The notes beneath the pieces were generated by a model. It did not search any database. It saw nothing but the letters and a program-made list of their open reading frames with translations, and was not told the DNA's origin. Positions 2,455 through 50,558 of a stretch of 64,000 bases of DNA are shown here, in pieces. The stretch spans positions 576,001 through 640,000 of the forward strand of contig JAVJQW010000023.1 in NCBI GenBank assembly GCA_040218735.1, given 5' to 3'. The DNA comes from Deltaproteobacteria bacterium. GTDB lineage: Bacteria; Myxococcota; Kuafuiibacteriia; Kuafuiibacteriales; Kuafuiibacteriaceae. Made by a program: the position numbers and the translations under genes. Every line of letters begins with the position of its first letter. The first letter of the stretch is position 1.

Positions 2455-3562
2455 ATTCTTCCGCCTGGGCGATCAAACTCACAGCGAGCGCCGAGACCTC
2501 CGCGGCCGGATCCATCGTCGCGGCCTGAAGGATCTGCAGCACCTGCGGATCAGCGTAGGTTTGCGGCGGCCGCCAGTGCATCAGCCCCAAACCCATCACG
2601 GCGCGGAGCCGACGCACCGGGTCACGCGCGTGGACCGCCGTGAGTTTGAGGAGGAGGACGGGGAGCACCGGCAGCCGCCGGCTCAACGTCCACGCTAGGC
2701 CCGAGGCCTCGGGTCCCGACAGACTCACCGTTCCGATGCCGAACCTGCGGTCGACGAGCGCTTCGATCGCGGTCGCGTCCAAGCGCATTTGCGCGCCGGC
2801 GACGTGGGTGCGGTCGGTGCGCTCCACGAGCTCGACGCCGGGCACCTCCAGGGTGATCTGCAGGATGTGCTCCGCGACCTCGGGTGCGAGCATGGGGAGC
2901 ACGACCTCCTCCTCCGACGCGGACGGGTCGAGGAACTCGGTCCAGTTGTCGATGAGCCCCTCCTCATCGCCGTCCTCTTCCCACGTGTCTTCGAGGACCG
3001 CGGTGAGGACGTCTCGCACGGCGCCGTGGGTTGGGTCGTCCGCGAGCGCTTGCACGCGCGCGCGGCCGTCGGGGGGAGGCTCCGACAGGAGCGCCAACAT
3101 CGCGCCCGACACCGTGAGATCGACGTCCCCCGTCGCCACCGCTGCTTCGACGGAGCGCCGGGCTTCGTCGTCCCAGAAGATCCCGTGCACCGGGTCCATG
3201 TACAGCGACGTCAGCGTGTCGAGCGCATCCAAGCGCGCCTCGGGGTCGGCCTGCGCGTTTCGGGCGTCGAGGTGCACCAGCGGCGTCGGGACGAGGTGCA
3301 GACGCTCGGCGATCTGAAACGCCGCGTCGACCGCGGTGGGGCCCGACACGTCCGCGACGCAGATCCCTCGGGCACCGGCGACGAGCGTGACCTCCGCGTC
3401 GCGGTCGTCACCCGAGAGTTGAAACGTCGCGCTGGGGCGTTCGTCGTCTTCCTCTTCGCCGTCGAGCTGCTCACCGTCGAGCTGTCCGGTGATTCGTGAG
3501 ACGAGCGCGTCGAAGTCACCGCCGTCGAAAAACGCGAGGCGCAGGGAGTCCGGCGGAATCAC
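2441..3562 (-). CDS. Acidic, internally duplicated protein with HEAT-like helices; candidate immunity protein or chaperone for the upstream effector
   Basis: GTGA overlap with the 1334-aa gene. Two similar halves (VSGPTAVDAAFQIAERLHLVP / LSGPEASGLAWTLSRRLPVLP), each followed by DPxxRLxA. Confidence 0.6.
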   Translation of the reverse strand: MIPPDSLRLAFFDGGDFDALVSRITGQLDGEQLDGEEEDDERPSATFQLSGDDRDAEVTLVAGARGICVADVSGPTAVDAAFQIAERLHLVPTPLVHLDARNAQADPEARLDALDTLTSLYMDPVHGIFWDDEARRSVEAAVATGDVDLTVSGAMLALLSEPPPDGRARVQALADDPTHGAVRDVLTAVLEDTWEEDGDEEGLIDNWTEFLDPSASEEEVVLPMLAPEVAEHILQITLEVPGVELVERTDRTHVAGAQMRLDATAIEALVDRRFGIGTVSLSGPEASGLAWTLSRRLPVLPVLLLKLTAVHARDPVRRLRAVMGLGLMHWRPPQTYADPQVLQILQAATMDPAAEVSALAVSLIAQAEEFSRS

Positions 3563-28734: not shown

Positions 28735-29328
28735 CTAAGGTATGAGTATGGGCTGAACCGAAGTGACTCGATTCAACTCGACGGTAGGGATGTTTGTTGT
28801 TTTGGCTCCGGACGGCCACGTCACGATGACGGTCGCGCTGGATGCTGCGAGCTTCTCGGGCACGTGAACGACGAACTGCCAGCGTTGGGGGAACTCTTCC
28901 TTGGTGACGTAGACGGGCACCGTGTGGTTCGGGACCGACGGCGCCGGATCGACGAGCTGAACGGTGACGTCCTCAGGCGCGAGGTTCGCCACTGCGTTGT
29001 GCACTTCGCCCACCACGCGCGTGTCTTCAGGGCTGAACTGGAACGTCGCGCGTCGGTGGAGCTGAAGTGTCTGCGGTGAGGGCATCGGCGAGACGACCGT
29101 GGGGAGCTTCTTCGTCACGTAGTCGCGAGCCCACACCACGACGTCGTAGGTGCCCGGTGGGGTGTCGAGGACGACGAGATCTCCGCTCAGGTTCGTGACG
29201 ACGGGATAGAACATCCGCCGGTCGCGTAGCGTGTTGCTCGGGCTCTTGGGGACGAGCAGCTCCACGGAGGAGCTGCGAATCCGTCTCCCGGTCGAATAGT
29301 CGACCACCTTGAATCCGAGGTTCGGCAT
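28735..29328 (-). CDS. Carboxypeptidase-regulatory-like (transthyretin-type beta) eCIS accessory protein
   Basis: VTNLSGDLVVLDTPPGTYDVVV motif; typical position between DUF4255 and sheath genes. Confidence 0.65.
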   Translation of the reverse strand: MPNLGFKVVDYSTGRRIRSSSVELLVPKSPSNTLRDRRMFYPVVTNLSGDLVVLDTPPGTYDVVVWARDYVTKKLPTVVSPMPSPQTLQLHRRATFQFSPEDTRVVGEVHNAVANLAPEDVTVQLVDPAPSVPNHTVPVYVTKEEFPQRWQFVVHVPEKLAASSATVIVTWPSGAKTTNIPTVELNRVTSVQPILIP

Positions 29329-29340
29329 GACTTTCGTCCC

Positions 29341-29964
29341 TCAGGGGAGCGGGACCTCGGGCGGCACTTCGCTGGGGTTCGGGGCGCCGATGGTGTGCGG
29401 CGCGTTGCTGCGCTCCTGCACGATGCCGGAGGTGAAGACACGCTGAGACGCGATCGGGATGACGCGCGCCTTGTAGTAGAGCGCGAGCTTGAAGCGCTTG
29501 AACCCGAACGTCGTCCAGATGCGCGCCTGATCTTCGATGCTCGGGTTGTGCAGCGAGAGCTGCACCGTGTCGGCCGGATCCCAGCCGGCGCCGAGGTACA
29601 CGGGCTCGAGCTCGGCGTGGTCGTACATGACACGCAGGACGTCGCCGAGGAGCTGGTGCTCGTCGGTCGTGGAGGCCGCCCAAGCACACACCATGAAGTC
29701 GAGGTCGACGACACACGGCGGGACAACCTGCTGCGAGGTCCCGCCCACGCTCGAGACGACCTGGTGGTCGCGGTTCTTGAGGAAGGGGTTCTCGGAGATG
29801 TTGTAGAGAAAGACCGTCAGGCGCGGGCGCGGGATCGGGTCGGGGAGCAGATCGATGGACTCGATGAAGATCTGGGACGCGGTGATGCTGAGGAGCGAGA
29901 GATTCTCCTGCAGCACGCGCTTGAACGCGTCGCTCACCTGATAGATCGCCCGAGCATCCGCCAC
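29341..29964 (-). CDS. DUF4255 / Pvc16-like cap (tail terminator) protein
   Basis: RLTVFLYNISENPFLKN, PPCVVDLDFMVCAW, EHQLLGDVLRVMYD, IWTTF...LYYKARV. Confidence 0.88.
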   Translation of the reverse strand: MADARAIYQVSDAFKRVLQENLSLLSITASQIFIESIDLLPDPIPRPRLTVFLYNISENPFLKNRDHQVVSSVGGTSQQVVPPCVVDLDFMVCAWAASTTDEHQLLGDVLRVMYDHAELEPVYLGAGWDPADTVQLSLHNPSIEDQARIWTTFGFKRFKLALYYKARVIPIASQRVFTSGIVQERSNAPHTIGAPNPSEVPPEVPLP

Positions 29965-29966
29965 GG

Positions 29967-30290
29967 CTAGTCCTCCGAGAACGCTTCCAACAGCGCGTGG
30001 GGATCGTGGGCGCCGCGTCCGGCCACATGGATGCGGGTGGCGCCCGCGAGGTAGGCGTCGTGGTGGTCTTCGGGCGCCTCGCGGTCGGTGATCAGCCCGC
30101 GGACGCGGACGTGAAGCGGGATGCGCCCGAGCAGCGCCACGCCGGCGTCGTGGTGCCCGCGCGCGTCGATGACGACGGTCTCATCCGAGCCCTCCGTCCA
30201 GAAGCGCGAGGACGACAGATCGACGTAGACGACCCCGTCGGCGGAGCTCCACCGCCCCTCCCCCGCAACGTCCAGTAGCACCGTGCGCAT
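29967..30290 (-). CDS. Hypothetical protein (possible degenerate receiver-like fold), first gene of the eCIS operon
   Basis: 107-aa ORF ending 2 nt before the DUF4255 start; GGGAG RBS; AYLAGATR resembles the receiver motif A..AGA. Confidence 0.55.
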   Translation of the reverse strand: MRTVLLDVAGEGRWSSADGVVYVDLSSSRFWTEGSDETVVIDARGHHDAGVALLGRIPLHVRVRGLITDREAPEDHHDAYLAGATRIHVAGRGAHDPHALLEAFSED

Positions 30291-30303
30291 GACTCCCGGC
30301 TAG

Positions 30304-30404
30304 AGCAGGAAGCGATCCACATCGAGACACTCGCCAGCGGAGCCTGGGCGCCGGAGTGGGTTGCGGAATGCAACATGGGTTGCGCGACCAAGACGTTGCG
30401 CAAC
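30304..30404 (-). promoter_or_regulatory. Candidate sigma54 promoter (-24/-12) with upstream GTTGC/GCAAC enhancer-like repeats
   Basis: Minus strand TGGATCGCTTCCTGCT (30319-30304) has exact GG-N10-GC spacing. Upstream are GTTGC-N5-GCAAC (30360-30374), GTTGC (30379) and palindrome GTTGCGCAAC (30395-30404). Confidence 0.5.
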
Positions 30405-30432
30405 GGCGTCGGCGCGCCGCCCGTGACCGCTT

Positions 30433-33400
30433 TCAGCGGGAGACGCTGAGGTAGTCGATGCGCAGCAGGATGTCGTCGACCTCGTTGAGGCGAAGGCCAT
30501 CACCCACCGGCCGGCCCTCGTCGTCGACGTTCGGCAGCTCGCTCTCGGGGATGAACAACGCGTACTCACCGAAGAGGAGCCTCGCGGCGAGCTCGGTGCT
30601 CTCACCGTCGACGGTGGTGCTCGAGGCGAGCGTCGTCGGGTCCACGTTCAAGCGAGCCTGCAGTCGCGCCGTTGCGAAGTTCCTCGCCGAGTCGTCGACG
30701 AGGTTTGGGACGCCCTCGCCGACCCCGGGGAGGCGGAAGAGGTTTCGACGCGGCCGCGTGCTCGCGACCTGGAACGAGTCGTCGGCCGCACGCGCACAGC
30801 GGTTCGCGTAGAAGGTGTTGGCCTGCTGAATCTCCAGGTTCACCGTCTGCGCCAGCCCTTGGAACATGCGCGCCTCGTCGCCGACGACGGTCGCGTTGAG
30901 GCTCCATACGCGCTCGGCGCACGCGTTCTCGAGCGCAAACGGGATGCCCGAGGCGTCCCCTCGATTGAGCGCCGAGAGCGGCGCGAGGTTGAACGGGATG
31001 CGCACGCCGAGGCGACGACCATCCCTCCGCACCTCGAAGCGCGGGTGAGTCAGGATCGCGCGGAAGCGCTCGGTGGCGTCGAGGATGTGATTGCCCGGAT
31101 CGACTTCGAGCTGATCGGCGACCTGTAGGATCTCGTTCTTGAGGCTGATGACCTGGGTGAGCTCGGCCGGGACCGCACCGTTGACGGAGCCGGTGGCCTT
31201 GATCGCGCGGAGCTCGTCGAGCACCTCGACCAGGTCGTTCGCCTCCTGCGCCGCGAGCACGTCTGCGCGCGCCGACAAGGACTGCTGAAACTCGTACTCT
31301 ACCGCGCGCACGCCGAGGTACGACGCGCGGCGCGCGAGCGCGAACTTCCGACGGAACGCTTCGATGTCGTCGTTCAGCCACGGGTCGCGCCCGACAACGC
31401 TCGCGAGCGAAGCCTCCGCAGCCGCCACGTCGGCGAGCCCGCGCGGCACCCGTCGCACGAGTTGCTCGCGCAGCCCCTCGAACTCGAGGTACCCGGCCGA
31501 CGCTTCTTGCATCGCCCGACGAATACGCAGCTGGGCGGCGTCGAGTCCGACCAGCGCGAGCTCGGCCTCCTTGAAGCAACGCTCCTCCTCGATGTCATTC
31601 TCGATGCCGAGCACCGTGAGGTCGTGGCTGCGCTGGGCGTCGTCCATCGCGGCCTGGATCGCGAGCGAGGCGATCTCGAACCCAGCCGCCACGCCCCCCG
31701 CGGTGCAGGCCGTCCCCGACGCCGCGCCGAACTTCGTGTCCGAACCGACGGCATCGGCACAGTCCGCCACCGCGTGCGAGGCGACGGCGGCGGAGTCCAC
31801 CGCGGTCTTCGCTGCGTTGAGATCGGACATGGTGTTCGCGTGGTCCTCTTCGAGGCCCTCGATCTCTCGATTGCCCGCGCGGAGGATGTCGCAGCTCCGA
31901 ACCTGGATGTCGTACTCGTCGAGGAGCGCGTTGAACTCGGCGCGCGCCGTCGCGATGTCGGTCGCGAGGATGCGGAGGCCGAACGCGACCTCCCCGAGCG
32001 CGCCGGAGTAACACACCGACGGCGGCTGCGCCGTGCTGAGAGCGTCGGGCTGTCCGGGCAGCGGGAACAACAGCTGACACCGTTGCTGCTGCTCGAGGAA
32101 CGCCGTCCGCTGCGACAGCGTGGGATCGGCGGCGAGCGTGGTGAATGGGGCGACGAGGTCGGGATCGTACTCGACCTCGAACGCGTCGCCGGCGCCGGCC
32201 TGGCGGGGTGCGCAGCGGAGGCGCGCGGTCGTCGGATCGTCGCCGGTGAAGACCACCTGCGGCATCACGGCCGGGAAGTCCTCCGGGACGTCGGGGTTGA
32301 GGCACGGGTTCAGCGCCGCCGGCTTCAGCGTCCCGAAGAACGGCGCGCGGACGTAGCCGGGCGTCACGGGGATCGTCGCGACCCTCGGTCCCAGGTCGAT
32401 CTCACCGATCGCAGAGGATTCGCGCACGAAGACATCCGAGCCGCGGACGTCGAACCGGAACTCATCGAGTCGAATGTCTCCGTAGTACGGGCCGAGGCGC
32501 GCACGACGCCGCACCGTTGTGAGGTTCGCGTCCAGGATGCTCCCGAACGAGTCCCCGCCTACGCCGAAGTCGCGGCTGGCCTTCGCGTGGATCTCACTCA
32601 GGAGTGGGGAGGCATAGTCGATGAGGTTGTGGTCGAAGCCGCGCATGTACCGACCGACGTACTGATCGTCCGCCTTCTCTTCTTCGCTCGGCTCTCGACC
32701 CGCTACGTACTCGAATTCAATCGACGTCGCCGTGACTCCGACGCGCCCGGAGGCCATGCAGAGCTCCTGATAGATCGTGCTCCGGACGCTCTCGAGCTCG
32801 CGCTCGGCGTCCGACACTGGGTCGGGTTGCGGGGTGCACACCGGCAGGTCGCTCTGGTACCAGCACCCGTCGATGTCGAGGTCGCCGTCCTCGAGCGCGA
32901 TCGCGAGCGCCTCTGCACCCAGCCCCCCGAAGACATCGTCGCCGCACAGATCCAGGACCTCCGCGCCGAGCGCCACGCGCTCCATGCGGACGAACAGATC
33001 ACGGTCCGCCTGAACGTTCTCGACCTGGACCATCCGCTGCTGCTCCGCGAGGTACGCCGTGCGCGCGGTCGCGAAGGCATCGACCGCGTCCTGCACCAGG
33101 GAGGGCACGGGGGAGAAGGTCGAGAAGTCACTCCCGATCAGATAGTCACTCACCGCGGTGAACCGTGAGCCGGCGTCCGTCGCCACCTGTTCGAAGTACA
33201 GCGGGAGATCCTCGTCCTCGATCCCGAGTGGGTTGCGTCCCGCGTTGACCGCTTGAATGAGCTGCACCGCCTCGGCTTGTGCGTCCGCCGCGCGGGTGAC
33301 CGCACGATCGAGCGCCGCCTTCCACTCGGGCGTTCGTCGGAGCGTGACCCCGGCGAGGAGCTCGTTGACCAGGCCGTTGAGCGGGACCTGCAGCCGCAGC

Positions 33401-36324
33401 GCTTCACTCACTTCCGTCGGCAGCGTCGTGGCGCCGAGCCGAACGTCGTGCTCGACGAGGCGTGCGACGAGCTGACTGTGGACCTCGAGGAGCTCCGTGA
33501 CCGAAGTGAGGAGGCTTTCGTCGGTGGACCACAGGGCCGGCGCGGGATCGTCGACCGCGGTGACGGCGTCGTAGATGTTCTTCTCGGCCAAGACCGCGTC
33601 GTCGAGCGAAGCGAGCGGCGTGAAGACGCGCGGGTGGAGGAGGAGTCTGAGCGCTTGGTTCGTGCGCGCGATGGCGTCGACCAGCGCGCTGCGTTCATCG
33701 GTCGAGTCCACGCCCGGGAGCACCTCGACGCGCTGCACCGCCTCCGAAGCGACGAATGTCGCCGCCTGAACGAACCGCTGCGCGAGCCGCGCGGTCAGGA
33801 CGTCGGGACGCGGATCCTCGGGCGCGCCGTCGGGTGTGCCCACGAGCGCCGCGGCCCGGATCGACTCGCTCACGGCGCCGAAGCGCGTGAGGAACCGAGG
33901 CGCGCTGAGACACGTGCTCTCGTCGAACCCGCCGCGGCCGAGGCGGGCCGAGAGATCTCCGGTCGTGCCGGGCGAAGGCGGCTGAGCGAGCGCTTCGAGA
34001 TCCGAGCGACACGCCGTGAGCAGCTCGTCGGCGGCCCTCGGCTGGTCGAGCCCGACGGCCAGGCCGGCGCCGTTCTCACACTGCAGATCACCCGTCGCCG
34101 GGTCGAGCGCGCTGGTGAATCGGTCGGGCTCGAAGGCGGCCCCATTCGCCGATCGGTGATCGCAGAGGATCGAGGTGACCGCATTCTTCGAGACCGGCCG
34201 CACTTCGCACCCGGCCGTCGCCGTCACGGGGACGATGACGGACTCCAGTCGGATCTGATTGTCCTCCCCCGATATGAGTACGGCGAGCCCGATATTGAAC
34301 TGCCGCGCCTGCACCGTACCGGCGGTGGTCAGATCGATGGGCTCGCACTGGTAGCGCCGAGCCAGCGCCTCGCAGAAGTTGGCGCCGCCCGACGAACGCG
34401 CAGGATCGAAGCGGGGACGATTGTTGTGGGTTCGTCCGTCGGTGCGTACCGAGAAGACGACGTCCGTGGCCGCGTTTTCGAATGCGCAGGGGACGACGGG
34501 TCGTGTGGTCCGACCGCCGATGGTCCACGTGGTCGGGAATGGCGCGTGCGCCGTGGATGCCAGCGAGACGAGGCTCACGTCGGGCTGCGGCTGCTCGTAG
34601 TCACTCACCTCGAGGGTGGAGTCGACGAAGAAGGCCATGGCGATCGACTGGATGCGATCGCGCATCCCGATATCCCTGAATCCGGTGAAGTGACCGAATC
34701 TCGCGAGGACGAACCCATCTAGCCAACCGGCGAAGTCACCCCCCATCCAGTCACCGAAATAGGCCTTGGCGGTGAACTCATCGACGGCGCCTGTCGGGGG
34801 AATCGTCTCCCAGCCGTCGAACCTCGTGAGCATTCCGATGTTGGGTGCATCGTCGGCCGCACCCTGATCCGCAAGCATCGTCGGCGGTCGCGCGTCCGCG
34901 ATGAACCCTCCCAGCACCGTCTGGAGCCACGCTCGTGAGTCGGTCGTGAGCGGCCCTGAGAACGCGGACTGTGGGAGACTCGGCGCGTCCGACTGCGCAC
35001 GACGCCAGACGCTCCGCTGGTCTTCCAGGGTGAGTTGTGTCTGCTCGAGATCCGCGACGAGATCGACGTAGTTCTGTTCGGCGAGGAACCTCGTCGTCGC
35101 CTCCTGCGCCGGGACGTACGCGAGCTGCGCGTCCGAATCGACCGCCGGGGGCGCGCCCTCGGGGAGGTCGTCGGTTCGCTCCAACGCGATCTCGAACACC
35201 GCGATCGGCTCCCGCGCGATGTTCGCCGAGACCCCGGTCAACGTCACCGCGAGCGAGAAGCGGAGGTCTCCGCTCCACGTCTCGGCCAACGGATCGGTGC
35301 GAAGCCCGGCCGGCTCCGCGACCGCGACGACGTGGAGCCGGCCGCTCCCCGCCACGGGCGACGGCGCAGCCCACTCGAAGGCCGGCATCACGACGGAGCC
35401 GAACACGTCATCGTCGTCCGGCGCCAACTCGAGCGTGCCGGTCCACGCTCCGGCGGGGTTCATCAGGCGGCTGTCGTCGATGATCCGGATGCGTGCTTCG
35501 TTGCCGTTCGGCTCGTAGACCTCCGCGCGGATCGGGACCGTGATGCGCGCGACGGGCGGAGCGAGCGAGAACGCGTTTGCGCCCACTTGTACGAGCTGCA
35601 TCTGCCCCGCGTAGACCCCGGCGACCGGGCCAACGGGCGCAGTCACGAGGTCCGGTGCCACCGTCGCCTCGCTGCGTCCCCCCGCGTCGTCCAACACCTG
35701 CACGCGCGCCGACGCGCTCGGTTCGCCCATCATCGAAGGCGACTCCTTCACGGCGATGTCCGTCACCGAGTCGGCCGCCAGACCCTCGAGCATCAGCTCC
35801 GATCCGAAGTCGAGCTCGTCGAGGTCGACGCCGGGCGGTGCGAGCGCGACCTCGACGTTCGCGCCAGGCGCCACGCGAGCCCGGGCGACTGGGCCCCCGT
35901 CGGCGCGAATCGAAAGTGTGTAGATGCCGCTCGGGCTCCTACGGACCTGCGCTTGTTGGAGCGTCGCACGTCCCTTGCCGTCGAGGTTGGCGAGCGGGAA
36001 GACGTTCGTGCCCTCGAGGGCGCAGCGCCCGAAGTCGTCGCAGAGCTCACCGTCGGTGCAATCCGCGTCCGCCGTACACTCGAAGGCACACACCCCCAGA
36101 TCGCAGAACGAGCCGCACGCGCAATGGTCGTCGCGCGTACATCGCCGCGCCTCGAATGTGTCCGGTCGCTCGCAGGCCACGACGGGGGCCGGATCCGGGT
36201 CCGGGCGGGGCCCAGGTTCGTCGCCGGACCCGCAGGCGACCACCAGACCGACAGCGAGGACCGCGACACCTACTCTCTTCGTGGCGATGGTGTGGAGGCC
36301 TGTGTCGTTCCGGTAGTGCTTCAT
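30433..36324 (-). CDS. 1963-aa lipoprotein with Cys-rich N-terminus and TcA-toxin-like C-terminal region
   Basis: Signal peptide with lipobox (GLVVAC), CxxDxxCxxGxxC repeats, long coiled coils around a small-residue hairpin, RASYLGVRAVEYEF and terminal LNEVDDILLRIDYLS. Confidence 0.75.
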   Translation of the reverse strand: MKHYRNDTGLHTIATKRVGVAVLAVGLVVACGSGDEPGPRPDPDPAPVVACERPDTFEARRCTRDDHCACGSFCDLGVCAFECTADADCTDGELCDDFGRCALEGTNVFPLANLDGKGRATLQQAQVRRSPSGIYTLSIRADGGPVARARVAPGANVEVALAPPGVDLDELDFGSELMLEGLAADSVTDIAVKESPSMMGEPSASARVQVLDDAGGRSEATVAPDLVTAPVGPVAGVYAGQMQLVQVGANAFSLAPPVARITVPIRAEVYEPNGNEARIRIIDDSRLMNPAGAWTGTLELAPDDDDVFGSVVMPAFEWAAPSPVAGSGRLHVVAVAEPAGLRTDPLAETWSGDLRFSLAVTLTGVSANIAREPIAVFEIALERTDDLPEGAPPAVDSDAQLAYVPAQEATTRFLAEQNYVDLVADLEQTQLTLEDQRSVWRRAQSDAPSLPQSAFSGPLTTDSRAWLQTVLGGFIADARPPTMLADQGAADDAPNIGMLTRFDGWETIPPTGAVDEFTAKAYFGDWMGGDFAGWLDGFVLARFGHFTGFRDIGMRDRIQSIAMAFFVDSTLEVSDYEQPQPDVSLVSLASTAHAPFPTTWTIGGRTTRPVVPCAFENAATDVVFSVRTDGRTHNNRPRFDPARSSGGANFCEALARRYQCEPIDLTTAGTVQARQFNIGLAVLISGEDNQIRLESVIVPVTATAGCEVRPVSKNAVTSILCDHRSANGAAFEPDRFTSALDPATGDLQCENGAGLAVGLDQPRAADELLTACRSDLEALAQPPSPGTTGDLSARLGRGGFDESTCLSAPRFLTRFGAVSESIRAAALVGTPDGAPEDPRPDVLTARLAQRFVQAATFVASEAVQRVEVLPGVDSTDERSALVDAIARTNQALRLLLHPRVFTPLASLDDAVLAEKNIYDAVTAVDDPAPALWSTDESLLTSVTELLEVHSQLVARLVEHDVRLGATTLPTEVSEALRLQVPLNGLVNELLAGVTLRRTPEWKAALDRAVTRAADAQAEAVQLIQAVNAGRNPLGIEDEDLPLYFEQVATDAGSRFTAVSDYLIGSDFSTFSPVPSLVQDAVDAFATARTAYLAEQQRMVQVENVQADRDLFVRMERVALGAEVLDLCGDDVFGGLGAEALAIALEDGDLDIDGCWYQSDLPVCTPQPDPVSDAERELESVRSTIYQELCMASGRVGVTATSIEFEYVAGREPSEEEKADDQYVGRYMRGFDHNLIDYASPLLSEIHAKASRDFGVGGDSFGSILDANLTTVRRRARLGPYYGDIRLDEFRFDVRGSDVFVRESSAIGEIDLGPRVATIPVTPGYVRAPFFGTLKPAALNPCLNPDVPEDFPAVMPQVVFTGDDPTTARLRCAPRQAGAGDAFEVEYDPDLVAPFTTLAADPTLSQRTAFLEQQQRCQLLFPLPGQPDALSTAQPPSVCYSGALGEVAFGLRILATDIATARAEFNALLDEYDIQVRSCDILRAGNREIEGLEEDHANTMSDLNAAKTAVDSAAVASHAVADCADAVGSDTKFGAASGTACTAGGVAAGFEIASLAIQAAMDDAQRSHDLTVLGIENDIEEERCFKEAELALVGLDAAQLRIRRAMQEASAGYLEFEGLREQLVRRVPRGLADVAAAEASLASVVGRDPWLNDDIEAFRRKFALARRASYLGVRAVEYEFQQSLSARADVLAAQEANDLVEVLDELRAIKATGSVNGAVPAELTQVISLKNEILQVADQLEVDPGNHILDATERFRAILTHPRFEVRRDGRRLGVRIPFNLAPLSALNRGDASGIPFALENACAERVWSLNATVVGDEARMFQGLAQTVNLEIQQANTFYANRCARAADDSFQVASTRPRRNLFRLPGVGEGVPNLVDDSARNFATARLQARLNVDPTTLASSTTVDGESTELAARLLFGEYALFIPESELPNVDDEGRPVGDGLRLNEVDDILLRIDYLSVSR

Positions 36325-40124: not shown

Positions 40125-40418
40125 TTATTCCAACGCCCCCTCGGCCTCGAGCCACGCGCGAAGCTCCGCCCGAACCTCGTTGGCCTCCCCCGGACGTCCC
40201 TCACCGAAGTGAATCCAACCTTCCCGGGGTCGCCAGGTCCGAAGGTACTCGGTGATTTCTCCGCGGATCGAAGCAGGGACCGCCGACCAGAGCACGGCGC
40301 GCTCCTCGGAGCCCGCGAGCACGCGCATCACCGCCCACTGGATTTCGTCATCGGTGTAGAGCCCCACATCGTACGCCGCGAGGATTGCCTTCAGGTCTTC
40401 GATCGTTGTCATCGTCAT
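40125..40418 (-). CDS. Putative immunity protein for the upstream RHS toxin
   Basis: 97 aa (MTMTTIEDLKAIL...), ATGA overlap with the RHS stop codon. Confidence 0.65.
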   Translation of the reverse strand: MTMTTIEDLKAILAAYDVGLYTDDEIQWAVMRVLAGSEERAVLWSAVPASIRGEITEYLRTWRPREGWIHFGEGRPGEANEVRAELRAWLEAEGALE

Positions 40419-43400
40419 CCACCGCGCATCTTCTTGACGAGCAGGTTGGCCACATCCCACGCCTGCTCGTGAAGGTTGTTGGCCCAGCCACCGTCCAACC
40501 GATCCGCGATCAGCGCGTTCAATCTCCTCACCTGTATCGCACCTTCCTTGTTGAACAGCTCGCGAAGCGCGTTGATTTCGTGCATCTCGTGCGCGATGTG
40601 GGCGACGATGGCTTCGTCGCTCGTGAGGAGCGACTCGTCGAACCTCACGGGCACACGTCCCGTTCTTTGATGAAGGAAGTCCTCCCAGGTCACCCAGTCG
40701 TCTGGAGCGAAGTCTCTCGTGCGCGTGAAGTACTCGGCCCTGGCGTCCTTCCGTGACCACCGTATGAAGCCGATCGCCAAATCGTCGCCGATCTCCACGC
40801 CGTAGGACTTGGCCAGCTCGAGTGCTTCCTTCGGGGTCCTCCTCACCCCACCTGGGTTGGGCCTGAAATCGAACGCGGGCGCGCGCGCTGCGCCGCCGAG
40901 CCGCGCGCCGCCGCGGAGCTTACCCGCCACGAAACCGAACGCAGCCCCCAACACCTTCGCGACCACTGCTCCGAGCACACCCATCAAGGCTCCGCCGGCC
41001 GTGTCCTTGGCGTACGTCTCCGCGGAGCTGACCTCGCCTCGTGTCGCGTCGTGCAGCGCTCGCATACCCGGCGCGGACAGGGCACCGCTGATCATGCCCT
41101 CCAGGATCAAGCTCCCCCCGCCGTAGGCCGCACCCACCTGACCGGCGGCCGCCATGATGGCCGAGTATCCGACGAGCTTGGCGTTGCCGGTCACGACATC
41201 GTCCATCGCCACATCGAGCCTACGGCCGGATCCGGTGGGCGCGCGTTGCACCTGTCCGATGCTCCCGGCCGCTCCGAATGCCATCCGCGCGCAGAAACTC
41301 TCGGGCGCTCCCGCCTCCGTGCAGACCTTGTATTGCGCCTCTGGCGAAAGTGGCTTGGCCTCCGCCGCCGGATCCGCGGTCGCGTTGGCCACGTGGTCCT
41401 CTCGCCCGTCCGCGTCTCTTCGTGTGACCGGGTTGTTGCCCATCGCGACGTACGCGCTCTTGGACGCGTCTTCGACGGGATCTCTCGACAACCACCGTCC
41501 GAGCCAACTCAAGTAGTAGCGAGCCTGGAACGCGTAGAACCCAGTCTCCTCGTCTCGCTCCTCTCCGGAGTACCGAAAACGTTTGGGTCCTGCGGTCAGA
41601 CCGGAAGCCGTCGCACGATACGAGGTCGACCCGAACGGGAAGTACTCTTCGTAGGTCAGCAGGGGAGCTTGCACCGAAGGTCCGACCTCGACGCCGCTCG
41701 AACCCAGATGATCCGTCAGCGGATAACGTGCGCGTGGCGCAGGTGCCATGGAGATACCGTTGCGAACGGTCGCCGTCTCGACGATCGCGATTCGCTCCGC
41801 GCCGTTCATCACGTGGAGGGTTTCGGTCTGCTCCTGATTCCCGCGACGATAGAACTCCCAACCGTCGAGGTACCGACGCTCTACGACCTCGGTCGTTCGT
41901 CGGACGATCTTTCGAAGACGCAGCCCGCTCTCGTCGTAGACATAGTACGCGTGCCCGCCCCCACCGAGGTCCACCTCGACGAGGCGATCGTCCGCGTCCC
42001 AACTCAGCGGACGCATCCCGACGACCCCAGTCATGTTCCCGTGGCCGTCGTGTGCGTAGGTGTCGAGGTACGTCGGACCGATTGTCGGGTCCACGTAGGT
42101 CGGATGGCTCGACGGGCTCCCGGGTGAGCTCGTCGCGACGAGGTGGTTCGAGTTGAGGGCGTACTGATGACGCCGGCGCCACGCCACCGAGACTCCGCGT
42201 CGGTGTGACGTCTCGAGGATGTTGCCGACGGCGTCGTATCGATAGCGCTCAACGTAGCGTTCCAGCGTCGACGCGTCGTTTGCGTGCGGGAGGCTTCGTC
42301 CAGGGGGGAGGCCGGCGCCGGGTTGCTGCCCCGGATGACAGCGTCCCTCGGCGCGCGTGAGCCGGTGGCGAGCGTCGTACTCGAAGCGGCGGTCGGCCGA
42401 TACGACCGCGTTGTCGAAGAACAGACGTGGCTGCGCTCCGTCGAGGATCGCCACGACGTTTCCGAACGGGTCGTACGTGTACGCGCGATCCTGAAGCAGC
42501 GTCCCGTTCGCCCGACGGCTCGTCACCCCGGCCAAACGCTGACTGTCGCGATCGTAGCTGTAGCTCGTCTCGACTTCGTTCCCGAGCACGACCTGCTCAC
42601 GGCGGCCGAGCGCGTCGTACCGCGACGACCGAAGGTAGGGGACGCGGCCACCGACGCCGTGGTGCTGTACTTCGATGCCTTCGAGCTGCCCCCCGACACC
42701 GTAGCGGTAGTGCGTCGTGCTCTGATCCGGAGCGCGCGCGGACACGACGCGGCCCAGCCCGTCGAGCTTGGACACCGCTCGGTACTCCGTGCGCTCCAGC
42801 GCCGCATCGGCGAGCGTCTCCAGCGCCGCCAGATCCGGCGCCGACGTCAGCGCCGTCCAATCCGCGCCCTGCGCCCACGTACTCCACACCGCCACCGACG
42901 CGGCTGCGTCGGGTGCGGCGCGGAGCCGTCGCGCGACTTCGAGTGTGTTGCCGTCGAAGTCTCGACGAAGCACACGCCGAGCTCCCGCGGCGTCGTACAC
43001 GGCGTAGGCGTGACCCACGCATCGTTGCGCGCGCGCGGTCGCCGTCGGGAGATCGCTGCCGTAGACGACGTGACTTCGGACGACCTCCGCGCCAGCACCG
43101 ACGCGCAGATGTCGACTCACCGGACGCCGTAGACGATCGTACGTCATGCGCCACGCGTGGCCCCGGCTGTCCCACGTGCGTGCGGGTTGCCCGTCGGTCG
43201 CGGGGAGCGTCCACCACGATCCGCCGTCGCACGTCGAGGCGGCCAGCGAACGCCCCAGGAGGTCATACGTCGTCGTCGCGCTCGTGTTGCCGCGCCCGTC
43301 GGTGACCAAGACCGGACGGCCCTCGAGGTCGAGCGTCGACGTCGTGGTGTGAAGGTCGGGCGCCGCGGCGGTTCCGTTATCCTCGTCGATGCGGAACGTG

Positions 43401-43650
43401 CGGCCGAGCGCGTCCACGTGCGCCGTCATCGGCGTATCGGCGTGGACCAATGCAAGCGTGCGCGCGCGCTGCTGCTCGGCGCCTCCCGCCGCCGCCGTTC
43501 GCTCCCAGTCGGAGCCCACGACGGTGTCCGAACGGTCGCGCGTCACGTTCGACCAGGTTCGGTAGTCGATGCGCTCCTCGGTCCCGTCGCAGTACTGCAC
43601 CCGAGCTCGACGCCCGATCGGATCGTAGTGGGAGACCGAAGCCGGACGTG
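40415..43650 (-). pseudogene. 5'-truncated RHS/YD-repeat toxin (TcB-TcC fusion type) with HExxE metallopeptidase-like tip
   Basis: YD repeats, YEEYFPFG...RYSGEERDEETGFY, NPVTRRDADG core end, tip AHEMHEINALR. The frame extends upstream only to ~43663 (HYDPIGRR...), i.e. mid-protein, with no N-terminus. Confidence 0.82.
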
Positions 43651-45086
43651 ACAGTTGGGAGCTCTACCGGCGCCGCGACGACGCGGGAGAGATCGAAGCG
43701 ATCGAGACGCTGCACGTCCACGACGACCTGCGCCGAGTCGCCCTCGTGGAGACGCGAACGCGCCGCGAGCGCGCGGTCGAAGCGACGCCCTCTCCGCGCA
43801 CCCGGTATCAGCTCGACGACCACCTCGGCAGCGCGACGCTCGAGGTGGACGCCTCCGCGCAGGCCCGGGTTCTGACCTACGAGGAGTACGGGCCCTACGG
43901 TGCCGTCACCTACCGCGCGACGCGAGGCGGCGTCGATCTGTCGCCGAAGCGCTACCGCTACACCACGAAGGAGCGGGACGAAGAGACCGGCCTCGACGAC
44001 TTCGGCCAACGCCTCTACGCGAGCTGGCTCGCGCGGTGGGTATCGGCGGATCCCGCGGGGCTCATGGACGGGACGAACGTCTACGCGTACGTACGAGGAT
44101 CGCCGATGAACCTCGTGGACCCGGATGGCCTGGAGGGCGACCTCCCGGTCACGGCCTACCCCGAGCCGCCCAAGGGCGAGGTCAGCGGCGACGGGATTCA
44201 CGTCTTCCCGCACCCCGCCGACGACGGGACGCTGATGTGGCTGAAGCGCGAGGGCGGTCAGACGACGGACGCCGCCACGTTTGCGTTCCTCAACGAGAAC
44301 TACAACGACATCCTCGCGCGGGTCGGCGGCGACGAAGACGTTGCGCGCCGGCTCACGGAGGCCGCGACGGCGTTCAACGACTACATCGAGAGCCGCCTCT
44401 ACGCAGGCGAGAACCCGGTCGACGCGCGGAAGCGCTGGCTCGACGTGAACCTCGCGGAGGCCGCGGTCCACGGGTTCTTCTTCGGCGGGGACCCATCGTC
44501 GCCGGACTACGACGACAGCCGCAGCCTGATCGCCCTGGGCTTCAACCTTCTGCCGACGGCGTTTGCCATGCTGGCCGGGATGCGGAGCCGGCCGCGCCGG
44601 TCGTCACGCCGATCGGCCCGCGTGGTGATGGAGCGTGCGTTCCGCACGAAGGAGGAGTCTCAGGCGCCGGACTCGCGCGGGCTGTTCAAGAACCTGATTC
44701 CGAAGGACAAACCGCAGAGGGTGGAGTTCCAGACCGCCCGAGTCGCCGACGACGGAACGGTCACGGGCTTGACGAAGGTCCCCGATCGCCCGGTCGAGTT
44801 CGTTCGAATGCCGGGCGGCGAGCTTCGAATGGGCCGAGGCGGACACATCGATCTGTCGAACGGCGACCCCGTGAAGTTCGCGGGGCTCATCGAGGTCCGC
44901 CGCCGAGCCGACGGTTCGGTGTACGTCCTGGACTGGAACAACGCATCCGGTCATTACCGACCGGGTGCGGCCTGGGCGCGCCAGGCTGGGCTCCTGATGA
45001 ACAAGTTCAACGATGCGTCGCGAGCCTTCGCGATGTTCCGCAACCCCAATGCGAAGGTCTACCGTCGTTCGCAGCTCGGGAGGTGA
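43650..45086 (+). pseudogene. 5'-truncated RHS core + toxin tip with NxSGHYxP motif
   Basis: Frame reads WELYRRR...ETLHV from ~43655; YEEYGPYG...RYTTKERDEETGL, PMNLVDPDG, tip GHIDLSNGDPVKFAG...WNNASGHYRP. Confidence 0.82.
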
Positions 45087-45487
45087 TGCAAATGGACGAG
45101 AACGAAGCCAAGCTGTTGGCGCGCGTGGCCGCTTGGGCCACGGCACAGTCCGGGCGCCCCGAGGCGCCCGAGGCGTTCCCGGACGAGATTCTCGAGCTCG
45201 CCACCGTCGCACGAGTGCGCTCGCTCCTGGGAATCGAGTTCGGCTACCTCCCGCGGATCGGTCTGCTCTTGCTGTTCGAGCACCTCAAGCCCCCGTACGC
45301 CGAGCTCCGCGACGCCTTTCACGAGGGGCTACGACGGGGGGACGTCAGCGCCATCAAACACGACATTCGCATCCTCGGGCCACACATCCAGCGCCGTGAT
45401 ATCGAGCGGATCCTGGAGGACATCGCGGCGACCGATAACGATCACGCGGACGGCATCGTCTACTGGCTGAACCGGACCCCGCTGTAG
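45086..45487 (+). CDS. Putative immunity protein for the NxSGHYxP toxin
   Basis: 133 aa (MQMDENEAKLL...), TGATG overlap with the toxin stop, GGGAGG RBS. Confidence 0.65.
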   Translation: MQMDENEAKLLARVAAWATAQSGRPEAPEAFPDEILELATVARVRSLLGIEFGYLPRIGLLLLFEHLKPPYAELRDAFHEGLRRGDVSAIKHDIRILGPHIQRRDIERILEDIAATDNDHADGIVYWLNRTPL

Positions 45488-46522: not shown

Positions 46523-46671
46523 CCTGAGAGCCCCTCTTGTCCTTCCTATTCCCTTGAGTTTTAGACCATGATTGTATCAAGTATCATCGCGCGTTGGTCG
46601 CGCTGTTAGACTTCTGATTTCTAAAGCCACGCGAGCCCCTATCCTTTCCTCCATGCTTGAAGGCAATTGTC

Positions 46672-48651
46672 GTGCGACTCGAAAGTATCACGCTATCAGG
46701 CTTCCGTTGCTTCGGACCGGAGGCAATCACAATCCCTGTCAGCGCCGAGATCACGACCATTGTCGGCCCCAACGCGGCCGGCAAGACTGCACTGCTCCAG
46801 GCGCTCGCCAAGCTGTTCGGGGTCAGCCGGGCACAGCGCACCATTCATCGGTCGGATTTTCACATCGCCGTTGACGATGACCCAGACGATCGTGAGGCCA
46901 AGAACCTCGTCATCGACGTGCTCGTCGCGTTGCCCGAGCTCAAGGGCGGAACGGCAACGCCCGAAAGCGTTGCACCGTCGTTTCGGCATATGCTGATCGT
47001 GCGCAAAAACAAGGCGCCGGTCTGCCGTCTGCGCCTTGAGGCGCGATGGGAGGACGATGGAACCGTTGAGGGCGAGGTCTCGCAGGAACTTTTCTGGGTC
47101 GACACGCTCGACGATGATCCGAAGGACGACAAGAAGCATGCCACCGCCGCCGCCGATCGCGGCTTGATCCAACTCTACTACACGCCGGCGAACCGCGATG
47201 CTGGCGCACAGGTTCGAGCGACGGCCGGCGCCTTGGCCGCGCGCTTACTCCGCGCGATCGAATGGTCCGACGAGGCCCGCGAGAGCGTCGAGGAAGCGAC
47301 CGAGAGTCTCTCGGACGCCTTCGAGGGAGAAGCTGCGATCACGGCGATTGGCAAGGCGTTGCAGAAGCGCTGGGCGACGCTTCATGACGAGACGGTCGAC
47401 ACCAAACCGCGCTTGAGCCTGGTCAGCCGGCGGTTCGAGGAAGTGGTGAGCAAGATCGCCGTTATCTTCGAACAGGGCCCGGACGGGCGCGAGCGCGGAC
47501 TCGACGCACTCAGTGATGGCCAGCAATCCTTGTTCTACTTCGCTTTGGTCGCCGCCGTGTTCGACATGGAGCGGCAGGTCGCGACAGGTAAGGTAGACGG
47601 GTTCGACAAGGATCACTTGCGTATTCCGGCGTTGTCGGTCTTCGCGCTTGAGGAGCCGGAAAACCACCTGTCGCCATATTTCCTCGCGCGCATCGTTCGC
47701 CAGGTTCGCTCGCTCACTGCGGGGGGCAGCGCGCAGGCGCTCGTCACCAGCCATTCGCCGGCGGTGCTTAGCCGAGTTAAACCAGTCGAGGTGCGCTATT
47801 GCCGGTGTGACCCCGAAACCCGCGAATCCTCGGTCAAGAAGATCAAGCTTCCGACTAACAGGAGCGAGGAAGGCAAGTTCGTTCGCGGCGCGATGATGGC
47901 TTTCCCAGAGCTCTATTTCGCGCGCTTCGTATTGTTGGTCGAAGGCGATTCCGAGCGCGTCGTGCTCCCGCGTCTTGCCGAAGCGCTTGATCTACTGATC
48001 GACCCGGCGTTTGTCGCGATCGTCCCGCTCGGAGGTCGTCACGTCCAGCATTTCTGGCGCCTGCTGTCGCAACTCGACGTTCCCTACGCGACCTTGCTCG
48101 ACCTTGACCTCGGGCGGGCAGGAGGCGGCTTCGGGCGCATCAAGACCGCGATTGAAAAGCTGATCGACATGGGCGCCTCTAAGGCTGAGTTGCTCAACAC
48201 CGACAAAGGTATGTTGACCGATGCGGAGTTTGCAGCCATGCACACTTGGCAGGATGCGAAGAATCGCGAGCTCTTGAGCGGGTGGATCGACTGCCTCAAG
48301 GAACACGGCGTGTACTTTTCGGAGCCGCTCGATCTCGACCTGGCGATGCTCGCCGCCTTCGCCTCCGCCTACGAGGCGGTCATTCCTAAAGGCGGTGGCC
48401 CGAAAAACTCCAAGAAAGCCGCAGAGGCTGTGCTCGGAACCTCGGGGCCGGGAACAACGCTCTATTTGGGCCCATACAAGGATTACCCGCAGCTCTTTTC
48501 GGCCTATCGCTATCATTTCCTGACGCATAGCAAGCCCGTGACACATCTGGCGGCGCTCACGAAGATCAAGGACGGCGAGTTGAAGGCGAACATGCCGCGG
48601 GTGTTGGCGGAGGTTCTCGCTCATATCACGAAGCACCTCAGGCGGGATTGA
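46672..48651 (+). CDS. gajA: OLD-family ATP-dependent nuclease (ABC ATPase + TOPRIM), Gabija GajA-like
   Basis: MRLESITLSGFRCFG, GPNAAGKT, LSDGQQSL, LEEPENHL, VTSHSP, TOPRIM LLVEGDSE...LLDLD. Confidence 0.85.
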   Translation: MRLESITLSGFRCFGPEAITIPVSAEITTIVGPNAAGKTALLQALAKLFGVSRAQRTIHRSDFHIAVDDDPDDREAKNLVIDVLVALPELKGGTATPESVAPSFRHMLIVRKNKAPVCRLRLEARWEDDGTVEGEVSQELFWVDTLDDDPKDDKKHATAAADRGLIQLYYTPANRDAGAQVRATAGALAARLLRAIEWSDEARESVEEATESLSDAFEGEAAITAIGKALQKRWATLHDETVDTKPRLSLVSRRFEEVVSKIAVIFEQGPDGRERGLDALSDGQQSLFYFALVAAVFDMERQVATGKVDGFDKDHLRIPALSVFALEEPENHLSPYFLARIVRQVRSLTAGGSAQALVTSHSPAVLSRVKPVEVRYCRCDPETRESSVKKIKLPTNRSEEGKFVRGAMMAFPELYFARFVLLVEGDSERVVLPRLAEALDLLIDPAFVAIVPLGGRHVQHFWRLLSQLDVPYATLLDLDLGRAGGGFGRIKTAIEKLIDMGASKAELLNTDKGMLTDAEFAAMHTWQDAKNRELLSGWIDCLKEHGVYFSEPLDLDLAMLAAFASAYEAVIPKGGGPKNSKKAAEAVLGTSGPGTTLYLGPYKDYPQLFSAYRYHFLTHSKPVTHLAALTKIKDGELKANMPRVLAEVLAHITKHLRRD

Positions 48652-50558
48652 CGATGGGCGTTCTGGCGCGTCGGGTGCGACCCGAAGACTGGACGCCGGT
48701 CGGCGTAGACGAACTTGAGTCGAACGCGATGACAGTGGTGCGTTCGACCGAGAACCGGTCGGTCATCGCTGGTCCTGGTGCCGGCAAAACCGAGCTGCTG
48801 GCACAGCGCGCCGCGTATCTTCTCCGCACCGGAGCGTCGCTGGCGCCGCAACGGATCCTCGCCATCAGCTTCAAGCGGGACGCCGCGTCGAATCTGGGTG
48901 CGCGCGTGCGCAAGCGCTGTCATCGCCAGCACGCAGGCCGTTTCGATTCGATGACCTTCGATGCCTTCGCAAAGGGCTTGCTCGATCGCTTCGGGCAGGC
49001 CCTGCCGGAACAATGGCGTCCATCGCCAGACTATGAGATTTACTTCCCGACCGAGCGCGGCTACCGCGATTATCTTCAGCACACGCTTGGCGCTCCACCA
49101 AAGTGCGTCGGGACCTATGCCGATATTGTGACGCTGACTGTTGAGCGCTTCGAGCGGCGTTACCTTTTCGGGTCGCCCTTGCCGGTCGAGGGCTGGTCCG
49201 AGCCGTCGCCTGGGGAGTGGGCGGCCGACCAGTATTGGCAGTCGTCACTGCGCGGCGGCAAGAGAAGCCGTCTCTCCTTCCCCATGATAGGTCGTCTCGC
49301 CGAACTGCTGCTACGCCTCACTCCGATGGCGCGCGACGCGCTGCGTCTGACCTACTCACATCTGTTCATGGACGAGTTTCAGGATACGACGCAGGTTCAA
49401 TACGATCTGATGCGCGCGATATTTAATAGCGGCGACACGGTCATGACGGCCGTCGGCGACAATAAGCAACAGATCATGCGTTGGGCGATGGCGATGGACG
49501 ATCCGTTCGCGGCATTCGAAGCGGACTTCAAGGCAGTGCGCACGCCGCTCTTCAACAATTACCGCTCCTCGCCGGAACTTGTCCGCATCCAGCATATCCT
49601 GGCGCAAGCGCTGGATGCGAAGTCGGTGAAGCCGGTTTCAAAGAGCGCCGGCACGATCGCCGGTGACAGCTGCGCGATCTGGGATTTTTCATCGCCCGAA
49701 ACCGAGGCTCAGAAACTCGCCGAGTTTGTCGCGTCGGAGATGAAGGCGCACGAACTCGTTCCACGCGATTTCGTGCTACTCGCTCGCCAGAAGGCAGCCG
49801 ATTATGCGGCTGTACTCCAACCTGCTTTCGCGGCCGCAGGCATCCCACTGCGCAACGAGGCCGGTCAGGTTGGTGCGATCATGCTTCAGGATCTGCTCGC
49901 GGAGGAAGCATCCGCGCTCATCATGTGCGTGCTGCGGCTGGCGATGACGGTGCGCGCCGGTCGGCATTGGACGGAGTGTCGGGAAGCACTCGGCGCTCTG
50001 CGTGGCATCGGGCCGGACGACGAAGTCGCGCAAGGCCGCCTCGCACGCGAGTTGGATGTTTATGCCAGGCGTCTGAAATCAGATTATGTGATTGCGCCCG
50101 CCACCGAGCCGACTGCGCGCAAGCTCATTGACGACGTGCTTGAATTCATCGGCCGCGCCAGGCTTGTCGCCGCGCACCCAGCTTATGGGCAGGGAGATTG
50201 GCTGGAGAAAGTACTGGCTTCGGCGGCGGCGCATCTTGCTCAGTCAGCATCCGGCACGAAGGACTGGACCGCGACGCTTGATTTCTATGAGGGATTTCAT
50301 GCGATTCCGCTGATGACAATCCATAAAAGCAAGGGGCTTGAGTACCATACGGTGATCTTCGTCGGGCTCGACGATGGCGCCTGGTGGAGCTTTTCGGCCG
50401 ACCAGGTGGAGGCAACGGCCGGGTTCTTCGTTGCCTTCACGCGAGCCAAACAGCGAGTCGTCTTCACATACTGCGCGCGACGCGGAATGCGCACGAAGAT
50501 CGCCACTCTCTACGACATGCTTGCTCAAGCCGGTGTGCAGAACTTCTGGATTAGTTGA
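48648..50558 (+). CDS. gajB: UvrD/PcrA-like SF1 helicase, Gabija GajB-like
   Basis: AGPGAGKT, DEFQDT, VGDNKQQIM, NYRS, MTIHKSKGLEY, VAFTRAK; overlaps the OLD nuclease stop. Confidence 0.85.
   Translation: MTMGVLARRVRPEDWTPVGVDELESNAMTVVRSTENRSVIAGPGAGKTELLAQRAAYLLRTGASLAPQRILAISFKRDAASNLGARVRKRCHRQHAGRFDSMTFDAFAKGLLDRFGQALPEQWRPSPDYEIYFPTERGYRDYLQHTLGAPPKCVGTYADIVTLTVERFERRYLFGSPLPVEGWSEPSPGEWAADQYWQSSLRGGKRSRLSFPMIGRLAELLLRLTPMARDALRLTYSHLFMDEFQDTTQVQYDLMRAIFNSGDTVMTAVGDNKQQIMRWAMAMDDPFAAFEADFKAVRTPLFNNYRSSPELVRIQHILAQALDAKSVKPVSKSAGTIAGDSCAIWDFSSPETEAQKLAEFVASEMKAHELVPRDFVLLARQKAADYAAVLQPAFAAAGIPLRNEAGQVGAIMLQDLLAEEASALIMCVLRLAMTVRAGRHWTECREALGALRGIGPDDEVAQGRLARELDVYARRLKSDYVIAPATEPTARKLIDDVLEFIGRARLVAAHPAYGQGDWLEKVLASAAAHLAQSASGTKDWTATLDFYEGFHAIPLMTIHKSKGLEYHTVIFVGLDDGAWWSFSADQVEATAGFFVAFTRAKQRVVFTYCARRGMRTKIATLYDMLAQAGVQNFWIS

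Follow-up and report, generated by a model that had tools for sequence, protein, structure and literature searches.

The gene at positions 30433-36324 on the minus strand of the 64,000-nucleotide stretch analysed here (the window) encodes a predicted lipoprotein of 1963 residues, and, according to structure models, its channel hairpin and its C-terminal domain fold like the channel as well as the TcB-binding domain of TcA, the A subunit of toxin complex (Tc) toxins. The window comes from a Deltaproteobacteria bacterium of the phylum Myxococcota (assembly GCA_040218735.1, contig JAVJQW010000023.1, positions 576,001 to 640,000; contig C9 below), whose genome measures 11.6 Mb and is 96.5% complete. 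The gene is a single open frame of 1963 codons with no internal stop and with a third-position GC content of coding type; it is real, conserved and unannotated. Its product is a member of an unannotated Myxococcota superfamily of TcA-like lipoproteins, which falls into four clades, and belongs to clade I. An earlier sequence-only reading had proposed that the protein is a surface-tethered Tc-like injector, and our results support that interpretation in part. We hold it about evenly balanced that the protein acts as a lipid-anchored Tc A subunit, that is, as a tethered pentamer that injects the toxic tip of a TcB-TcC protein encoded elsewhere into a touched cell.

A TcA-like delivery core in a predicted lipoprotein

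The C-terminal half of the protein was modelled with AlphaFold (residues 770-1963, 70-row alignment, predicted local distance difference test (pLDDT) 76, predicted template modelling score 0.61). In this model, two long helices (residues 1441-1527 and 1542-1638) flank a Gly/Ala-rich tip (1528-1541) and form a channel hairpin that matches TcA (31411-32004; all coordinates within the gene are on the minus strand), just as the sequence-only reading had anticipated from its coiled coils. A third helix (1652-1679) ends in the motif AVEYEF (residues 1674-1679, 31288-31305), which closes the last long helix, and residues 1718-1961 (30442-31173) adopt the fold of the TcB-binding domain according to the model and a comparison with VIA. 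AVEYEF and the terminal motif DDILLRIDY, which begins at residue 1950, are both family-conserved, and within clade I conservation is highest over the C-terminal 310 residues. A Foldseek search with the model, which covered the comparison with TcdA1 that the sequence-only reading had called for, gave 22 matches at E≤0.001, of which the 21 listed are without exception TcA; the best non-Tc match has E=0.17. In a second look with VIA, TcA chains occupy ranks 1-16 (Z 14.5-16.6, TcdA1 range ~2005-2516), for example 6h6f with Z 16.4, a root-mean-square deviation (rmsd) of 4.4 and 277 aligned residues (chain range 2008-2516). A wide search independent of Foldseek placed TcaA-TcaB at rank 1 (Z 14.8) and TcdA4 at rank 2 (Z 14.5). 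The TcB-binding domain alone (1718-1961) aligns with residues 2327-2516 of TcdA1 (6l7i_A) at Z 10.3, rmsd 3.4 and 152 aligned residues. The ESM Atlas leads to the same family, with a feature score of 0.94 (211/256 features) to clusters in which 86% of the members carry PF18276 (TcA_TcB_BD). Conservation within TcA is highest for the channel and for the TcB-binding domain (PMC6795518; here and below, statements on cited papers refer to the available part of each source).

Several results stand on the other side. The Foldseek TM-scores for the TcA matches are 0.15-0.18 with an rmsd of ~30 Å, since the hairpin and the funnel sit differently in the monomer model; in these models the domains match TcA, but their arrangement within the monomer does not. 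Designed helical bundles reach a VIA Z of 13.8 through generic likeness. The window protein has no match in Pfam, NCBIfam or the PDB by phmmer or profile search, and neither it nor any of 17 aligned members, the full-length homologues found among 7990 candidates, matches PF18276 or another Pfam model. Profile comparison by hhalign with six PF18276-positive myxobacterial TcA fragments gave probabilities of 0.7-5%.

Upstream of the hairpin, residues 771-1028 (33241-34014) are modelled as a helical bundle, which may stand in for the helical shell of TcA and matches generic helical repeats only. It is followed by the NPLG segment (residues 1031-1071, 33112-33234), near-invariant across 118 homologues, a coil of ~40 residues where the TcA linker before the channel would be expected; many TcA structural alignments begin around this segment, though aligned ranges do not prove residue-level equivalence. 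Judged from its length, the long helix 1072-1127 (32944-33111) may be the first part of the descending channel helix. Between it and the hairpin lies a variable Cys-flanked insertion of low model confidence (residues 1128-1440, 32005-32943), which measures 311 residues in the window protein and 145-428 over 70 alignment rows. The window protein also has a Cys pair (1522/1540) at the channel hairpin, and the tip region of clade I is moderately hydrophobic (median best 19-residue hydropathy 1.39).

The N-terminal part was modelled separately (residues 32-799, pLDDT 71). It contains a putative Ig/MSP/PapD-like beta-sandwich at about residues 113-226 (35647-35988; Z 8-9.6, a common fold) and a small avidin-like beta-barrel at about residues 231-386 (35167-35634; Z up to 10.8). 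No TcA is listed for this model, which matches Ig-like and barrel proteins instead; residues ~445-580 are of low confidence, and a TcA-like part there is not excluded by the search. Neither model matches the shell, the neuraminidase-like domain or the receptor-binding domains of TcA, and the trefoil knot that TcA also has (PMC6795518) would be invisible in split models. The ESM Atlas likewise has no usable match for residues 100-770. Taken as modelled, the protein has kept the channel and the TcB-binding fold, which make up TcA's delivery core, and seems to have another outer part in place of the original. It was also observed that the top Atlas matches of the C-terminal module (0.95-0.96) are unnamed clusters of ~700 residues, commonest in Verrucomicrobiota, which are possibly further minimal TcA-like families.

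The N-terminus has the features of a Sec/signal peptidase II substrate: a positive n-region, a hydrophobic h-region and a lipobox Cys. The predicted signal peptide spans residues 1-31 (36232-36324), KRVGVAVLAVGLVVAC ending at Cys31 with the lipobox VVAC. A Pro/Asp-rich spacer separates Cys31 from a family-conserved Cys-repeat block (residues 51-101, 36022-36174), for which relatives in clades III and IV show weak DUF7107 matches. We scored the lipobox with a pattern test of our own rather than with SignalP. Of 54 full-length genes of the family (the window gene and those of the homologue scan, mostly clade I), 45 scored, as did 3 of 324 internal control windows; clades II, III and IV gave 8/9, 5/6 and 18/21 scoring genes, respectively. 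By this sequence test, the lipobox of the family exceeds chance expectation. Thus, the intact frame, the lipoprotein signal, the Cys repeats and both motifs named in the sequence-only reading are all present.

Clades of the family and neighbouring TcB-TcC fusions

The family comprises 488 representatives at 50% identity (E≤0.001, with the last 565 residues as query). A genome scan gave 114 relatives, whose titles are almost all Myxococcota, Bradymonadia or Deltaproteobacteria, and the scanned loci cover 79 of them. The cultured Persicimonas caeni carries a homologue, WP_141199025.1, annotated as hypothetical. Of 301 sampled genomes of the phylum, 41 gave a family match, and clade IV is in 44 of the 301; both tallies take in one unpublished genome (G180), which our own counts omit. 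Trees were built from the last 520-560 residues of 92 rows, and a second tree from 65 rows with 26 of the 80 clade I genes; the midpoint root is for drawing only. Clade I unites the window protein, two paralogues in the same genome and others at a Shimodaira-Hasegawa approximate likelihood ratio test (SH-aLRT) value of 98, and clades I and II join at 100. Two near-tandem clade I paralogues at L002:3205-17106 rank with the nearest relatives that the window protein has. No longer fused forms (3437-5000 residues) were found among 2528 candidates, which is weak evidence.

The genome holds seven family members, three of clade I and four of clade IV. The divergent clade IV genes (C39:374818-380808(-), C56:44171-50134(-), C66:63901-69447(-) and C70:385384-390936(+), genome G000) were found via a local profile search of the genome, and clade IV aligns with clade I at an hhalign probability of 97.7%. 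Three of the four lie within ~5 kb of a TcB-TcC fusion gene. A Cys-rich lipoprotein family of 600-1300 residues, with no family-defining Pfam match, adjoins clade IV genes at nearly all loci examined (L128-L149, e.g., L130:1953-3902), even those with no nearby capsule gene; the genome has four copies, none of them in the window. At one locus of this series (L146), a GC-based gene caller gave no usable gene calls.

The sequence-only reading had suggested that homologue neighbourhoods be searched for TcB and TcC genes. In clade II, a fusion of SpvB, FG-GAP, TcdB_midN and RHS parts, the counterpart of the TcB-TcC capsule, is directly adjacent in 12 of 12 loci; in clade III such a fusion adjoins 4 of 6 loci, and many clade IV loci have one as well. 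Most clade II and III loci were chosen by score while their neighbours were still unseen. Because these clades are encoded next to TcB-TcC fusions, the tethered injector gains support at the level of the family. Judged by eye, the fusions beside clades II-IV open with signal-peptide-like stretches. Their tips vary between close homologues, and Pfam names Ntox43, TseH, PT-HINT or HNH in 6 of 24 scanned tips. At seven clade II and four clade III loci, an open reading frame (ORF) of 111-171 residues starts at -22 to +9 bp of the fusion stop; two of these small downstream ORFs match DUF6843 or DUF4259, and their position suggests that they are immunity genes. The clade II and III operons thus combine a variable tip with a tightly linked small gene, as polymorphic toxins do, and these tips and small genes argue for bacterial targets of both clades. 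As a separate observation, genome G050 has 27 SpvB matches and, next to a capsule gene, an A gene resembling clade II that is interrupted by an internal stop.

Proposed mechanism, its alternatives and the local neighbourhood

Starting from the fold and the family linkage shown above, we infer export, pentamer formation, topology, partner and target as follows. The window protein would be exported by Sec, lipidated at Cys31 and folded after export with disulfides between its conserved Cys residues, and would then form an outer-membrane-tethered pentamer. Where TcA has neuraminidase-like and receptor-binding domains, the window protein may use its N-terminal 770 residues and its insertion as tether and target binder. 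The five hairpins would together make a ten-helix channel, which would be pushed into the membrane of the target in the manner of TcdA1; a TcB-TcC capsule seated on the funnel would let its tip out by way of this channel. Since no capsule gene lies beside a clade I gene, the clade I capsule would be loaded in trans. The target would most likely be another bacterium.

On the question of the partner, several results weigh against our reading. The flanks of clade I hold a capsule gene at none of 61 genes with at least 2 kb downstream and at none of 37 with at least 3 kb on both sides (the truncated RHS pieces of the window, which are under the threshold, count as none), so that the neighbourhood evidence for a tethered Tc injector holds for its sister clades but not for clade I. 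Score-based assignment gave 19 carriers of clade I, mostly incomplete assemblies and related to each other; no SpvB match was found in 8 of these genomes (93-98% complete) and no TcdB_midN match in 9. In favour of our reading, the genome itself has 8 SpvB-type ORFs, most with signal-peptide-like N-termini by eye. Its main capsule family tracks clade IV: a copy at least 42% identical occurs in 25 genomes, all 25 of which have clade IV and just 5 of which have clade I, and in six examined members the tips are unannotated and no ORF is clearly immunity-like. Because of its link to clade IV, we have rejected this family as a dedicated partner of clade I. A Gly-rich lipoprotein, with a beta-rich domain split by a long Gly-rich stretch, adjoins 12 of 80 clade I genes (loci including L005, L008, L019, L034, L037, L053, L069, L070 and L106) and is a candidate accessory or cargo of the clade.

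These findings could also be explained if clade I works independently of TcB-TcC, as a contact-triggered pore alone or with other cargo such as the adjacent Gly-rich lipoprotein, which we consider a serious though unlikely alternative. It would account for the bare flanks, the carriers with no SpvB match, the Gly-rich neighbour and the moderately hydrophobic tip region; a TcdB_midN match in 10 of 19 clade I carriers vs 108 of 301 genomes overall is a weak difference among related genomes. However, the carriers are for the most part metagenome-assembled genomes with gaps, the sister clade has a capsule gene at every one of its 12 loci, and the TcB-binding fold is whole and most conserved, though it also builds the funnel. 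A different topology is less probable still: the lipoprotein might face the periplasm, be passed on via vesicles or membrane fusion and pierce the inner membrane of the target, or it might pierce the outer membrane of the producer itself and so make a way out for the toxin tip. Export signals on both partners in clades II-IV would suit this, nuclease-type tips need the cytoplasm, and the SitA lipoprotein toxins of myxobacteria pass by outer membrane exchange (PMC10433427). Yet the TraA N-terminal domain was not found in the genome, in a search that lacked a positive control and gave no match in its other controls either, and the long, Cys-rich, Ig-containing N-terminus would seem better suited to a surface tether. 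It appears rather improbable that the protein is a domesticated, non-toxic surface protein (an adhesin, scaffold or cell-contact conduit) that has retained the TcA fold. Stand-alone genes amid other surface lipoproteins and several paralogues per genome are compatible with such a role, for which teneurins, toxin scaffolds reused as receptors, are a precedent (PMC13018210), but conservation extends to the amphipathic hairpin, its tip and the funnel alike, and the patchy distribution over the 301 genomes is that of conflict systems.

The least probable of these alternatives, to which we give very little credence, makes the protein a component or cargo of the adjacent extracellular contractile injection system (eCIS). 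The eCIS operon (Pvc16, sheath, tubes, baseplate and AAA ATPase; 7570-29964, minus strand) starts ~140 bp downstream of the window gene on the same strand, with no terminator-like site on the minus strand; a promoter scan found 0 sites. A contig of an independent sequencing run (X4) spans the junction (29285-31102), so the arrangement is real in the host species. It is, however, not conserved. A sister species has an orthologue at 92.5% nucleotide identity, in which likeness to the window ends 21 bp past the stop and other DNA follows, and eleven proteins of the eCIS region have no match in 110 loci (L001-L110) of family relatives. A sheath search gave no match in the carrier genomes G060 and G045, and no eCIS lies near the two clade I paralogues of the genome. 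Moreover, lipoproteins are exported by Sec and not packed in an eCIS tube. With 0 of 110 loci and different downstream DNA in the sister species, we have rejected a functional link to the eCIS, next to which the sequence-only reading had placed the gene, and judge the adjacency to be incidental. Two further observations concern the eCIS itself: a protein of 1334 residues with no family match (3559-7563), right after the eCIS AAA ATPase, is a candidate eCIS cargo, and the genome has three eCIS-like loci (C9 ~517-549 kb, C9 583-606 kb and C20 ~174-181 kb).

Upstream of the window gene lie FG-GAP-like pieces, a gene of the beta-lactamase family and, 4-9 kb from its start codon as the sequence-only reading had stated, two RHS fragments. 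One is an N-terminally truncated TcB-TcC-type RHS fragment with a tip (40415-43663, minus strand) followed by a 97-residue ORF (40125-40418), and the other an orphan RHS core with a tip cassette (43629-45086, plus strand) followed by a 134-residue ORF (45083-45487). A TcB-TcC fusion of 2397 residues in genome G065, with no evident signal peptide, matches them in its C-terminal part (residues 1384-2139), at 54% and 68% identity. Neither piece matches SpvB or the propeller, so the pieces as they stand cannot dock on a TcA funnel. We have rejected these remnants, which the sequence-only reading had pointed out, as the probable local partner: the half that docks on TcA is absent, and they resemble another fusion class, one lacking an evident signal peptide. 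The stretch 40125-45487 thus consists of two head-to-head truncated RHS toxin cassettes, each with a small overlapping ORF after it, and resembles the junction of an inversion within a variable island. Beyond ~39,900, contigs of two other runs (X3 and X8) barely cover the RHS region, if at all, and none joins across, so they are not evidence on this point. Farther on, at 46657-50558, an OLD-type ATPase/TOPRIM nuclease and a UvrD helicase, which we take to be a Gabija-like defence module, precede genes for PIN and FRG proteins and an IS91-type transposase.

Relation to known toxin systems

The closest known proteins are the Tc (ABC) A subunits Photorhabdus TcdA1 (5lki, 6h6f, 6rw6), TcdA4 (6rwa), Xenorhabdus XptA1/2, Yersinia TcaA-TcaB (6rwb) and YenTcA (6ogd), which share with the window protein a helical channel hairpin and, after it, a TcB-binding beta-domain at the C-terminus. 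Unlike them, the window protein has a lipoprotein signal, a Cys-flanked insertion and many conserved Cys residues, and no sequence similarity to them is detectable. PF18276-positive TcA genes occur in 10 of 301 Myxococcota genomes, are not alignable with the window family and are absent from the genome of the window protein. Like Type 3 ABC toxins, clades II-IV combine a single TcA lacking known receptor-binding domains with a fused TcBC, while the term-searched text and supplements of the paper on that type mention neither lipoproteins, signal peptides nor Myxococc* (PMC12705794). We set the window protein apart from Tc types 1-3 because it fails to match PF18276 and because its export and its outer domains differ.

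Resemblance to other bacterial toxins is partial. The 'TcdB/TcaC' polymorphic toxins combine a signal peptide, SpvB, a propeller, RHS and a variable tip, often with HINT, as the capsules here do, but no TcA-type translocase is named for them in the available text (PMC3482391); the window family would supply one in Myxococcota. [quoted passage not shown] CDI-like delivery is presumed for large myxobacterial Rhs toxins in general (PMC10433427, PMC10047993). Bacterial teneurin-like proteins are YD-shell toxins predicted as Sec/SPII lipoproteins in Myxococcota, but in their case it is the shell that bears the lipid, and a TcA channel plays no part (PMC13018210).

A Sec-exported, lipid-tethered variant of Tc toxins is likely new. 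Full-text searches of the open literature, with subscription journals mostly uncovered, brought up no description of a TcA-like lipoprotein family, though the supplements of PMC7861908 and PMC3482391 could list such loci. Surveys built on Pfam and NCBIfam would have missed the family, because it is invisible to those models. The genome-wide Tc survey of Song et al. reported no immunity genes in Tc loci and took the targets as eukaryotic, and its main text, as available, does not mention Myxococc* (PMC7861908). The Yersinia toxin YenTc is freed by lysis, and nearly all proteins of its secreted cocktail have no signal sequences (PMC10847048). If our reading is correct, a lipoprotein TcA with exported, immunity-linked capsules would overturn both eukaryote-only targeting and release by lysis (PMC7861908, PMC10847048).

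For the phylum as a whole we put forward, at slightly less than even confidence, that predatory Myxococcota have a branch of Tc toxins adapted for use against bacteria: they would load a surface lipid-tethered TcA with interchangeable, secreted capsules, whose tips are polymorphic and paired with immunity, and fire these into prey or non-kin on contact, with no lysis of the producer. A tethered Tc syringe is likely used by predatory bacteria, and its targets are probably other bacteria. This would be a contact-dependent delivery distinct from the T6SS, CDI, outer membrane exchange and Tad/Kil, and would give signal-peptide SpvB-RHS polymorphic toxins a delivery route. The stand-alone clade of the window would then be the shared or capsule-free form of the tethered Tc system, and the family would be a candidate contact-killing machine in bacterial predators, including the cultured Persicimonas caeni.

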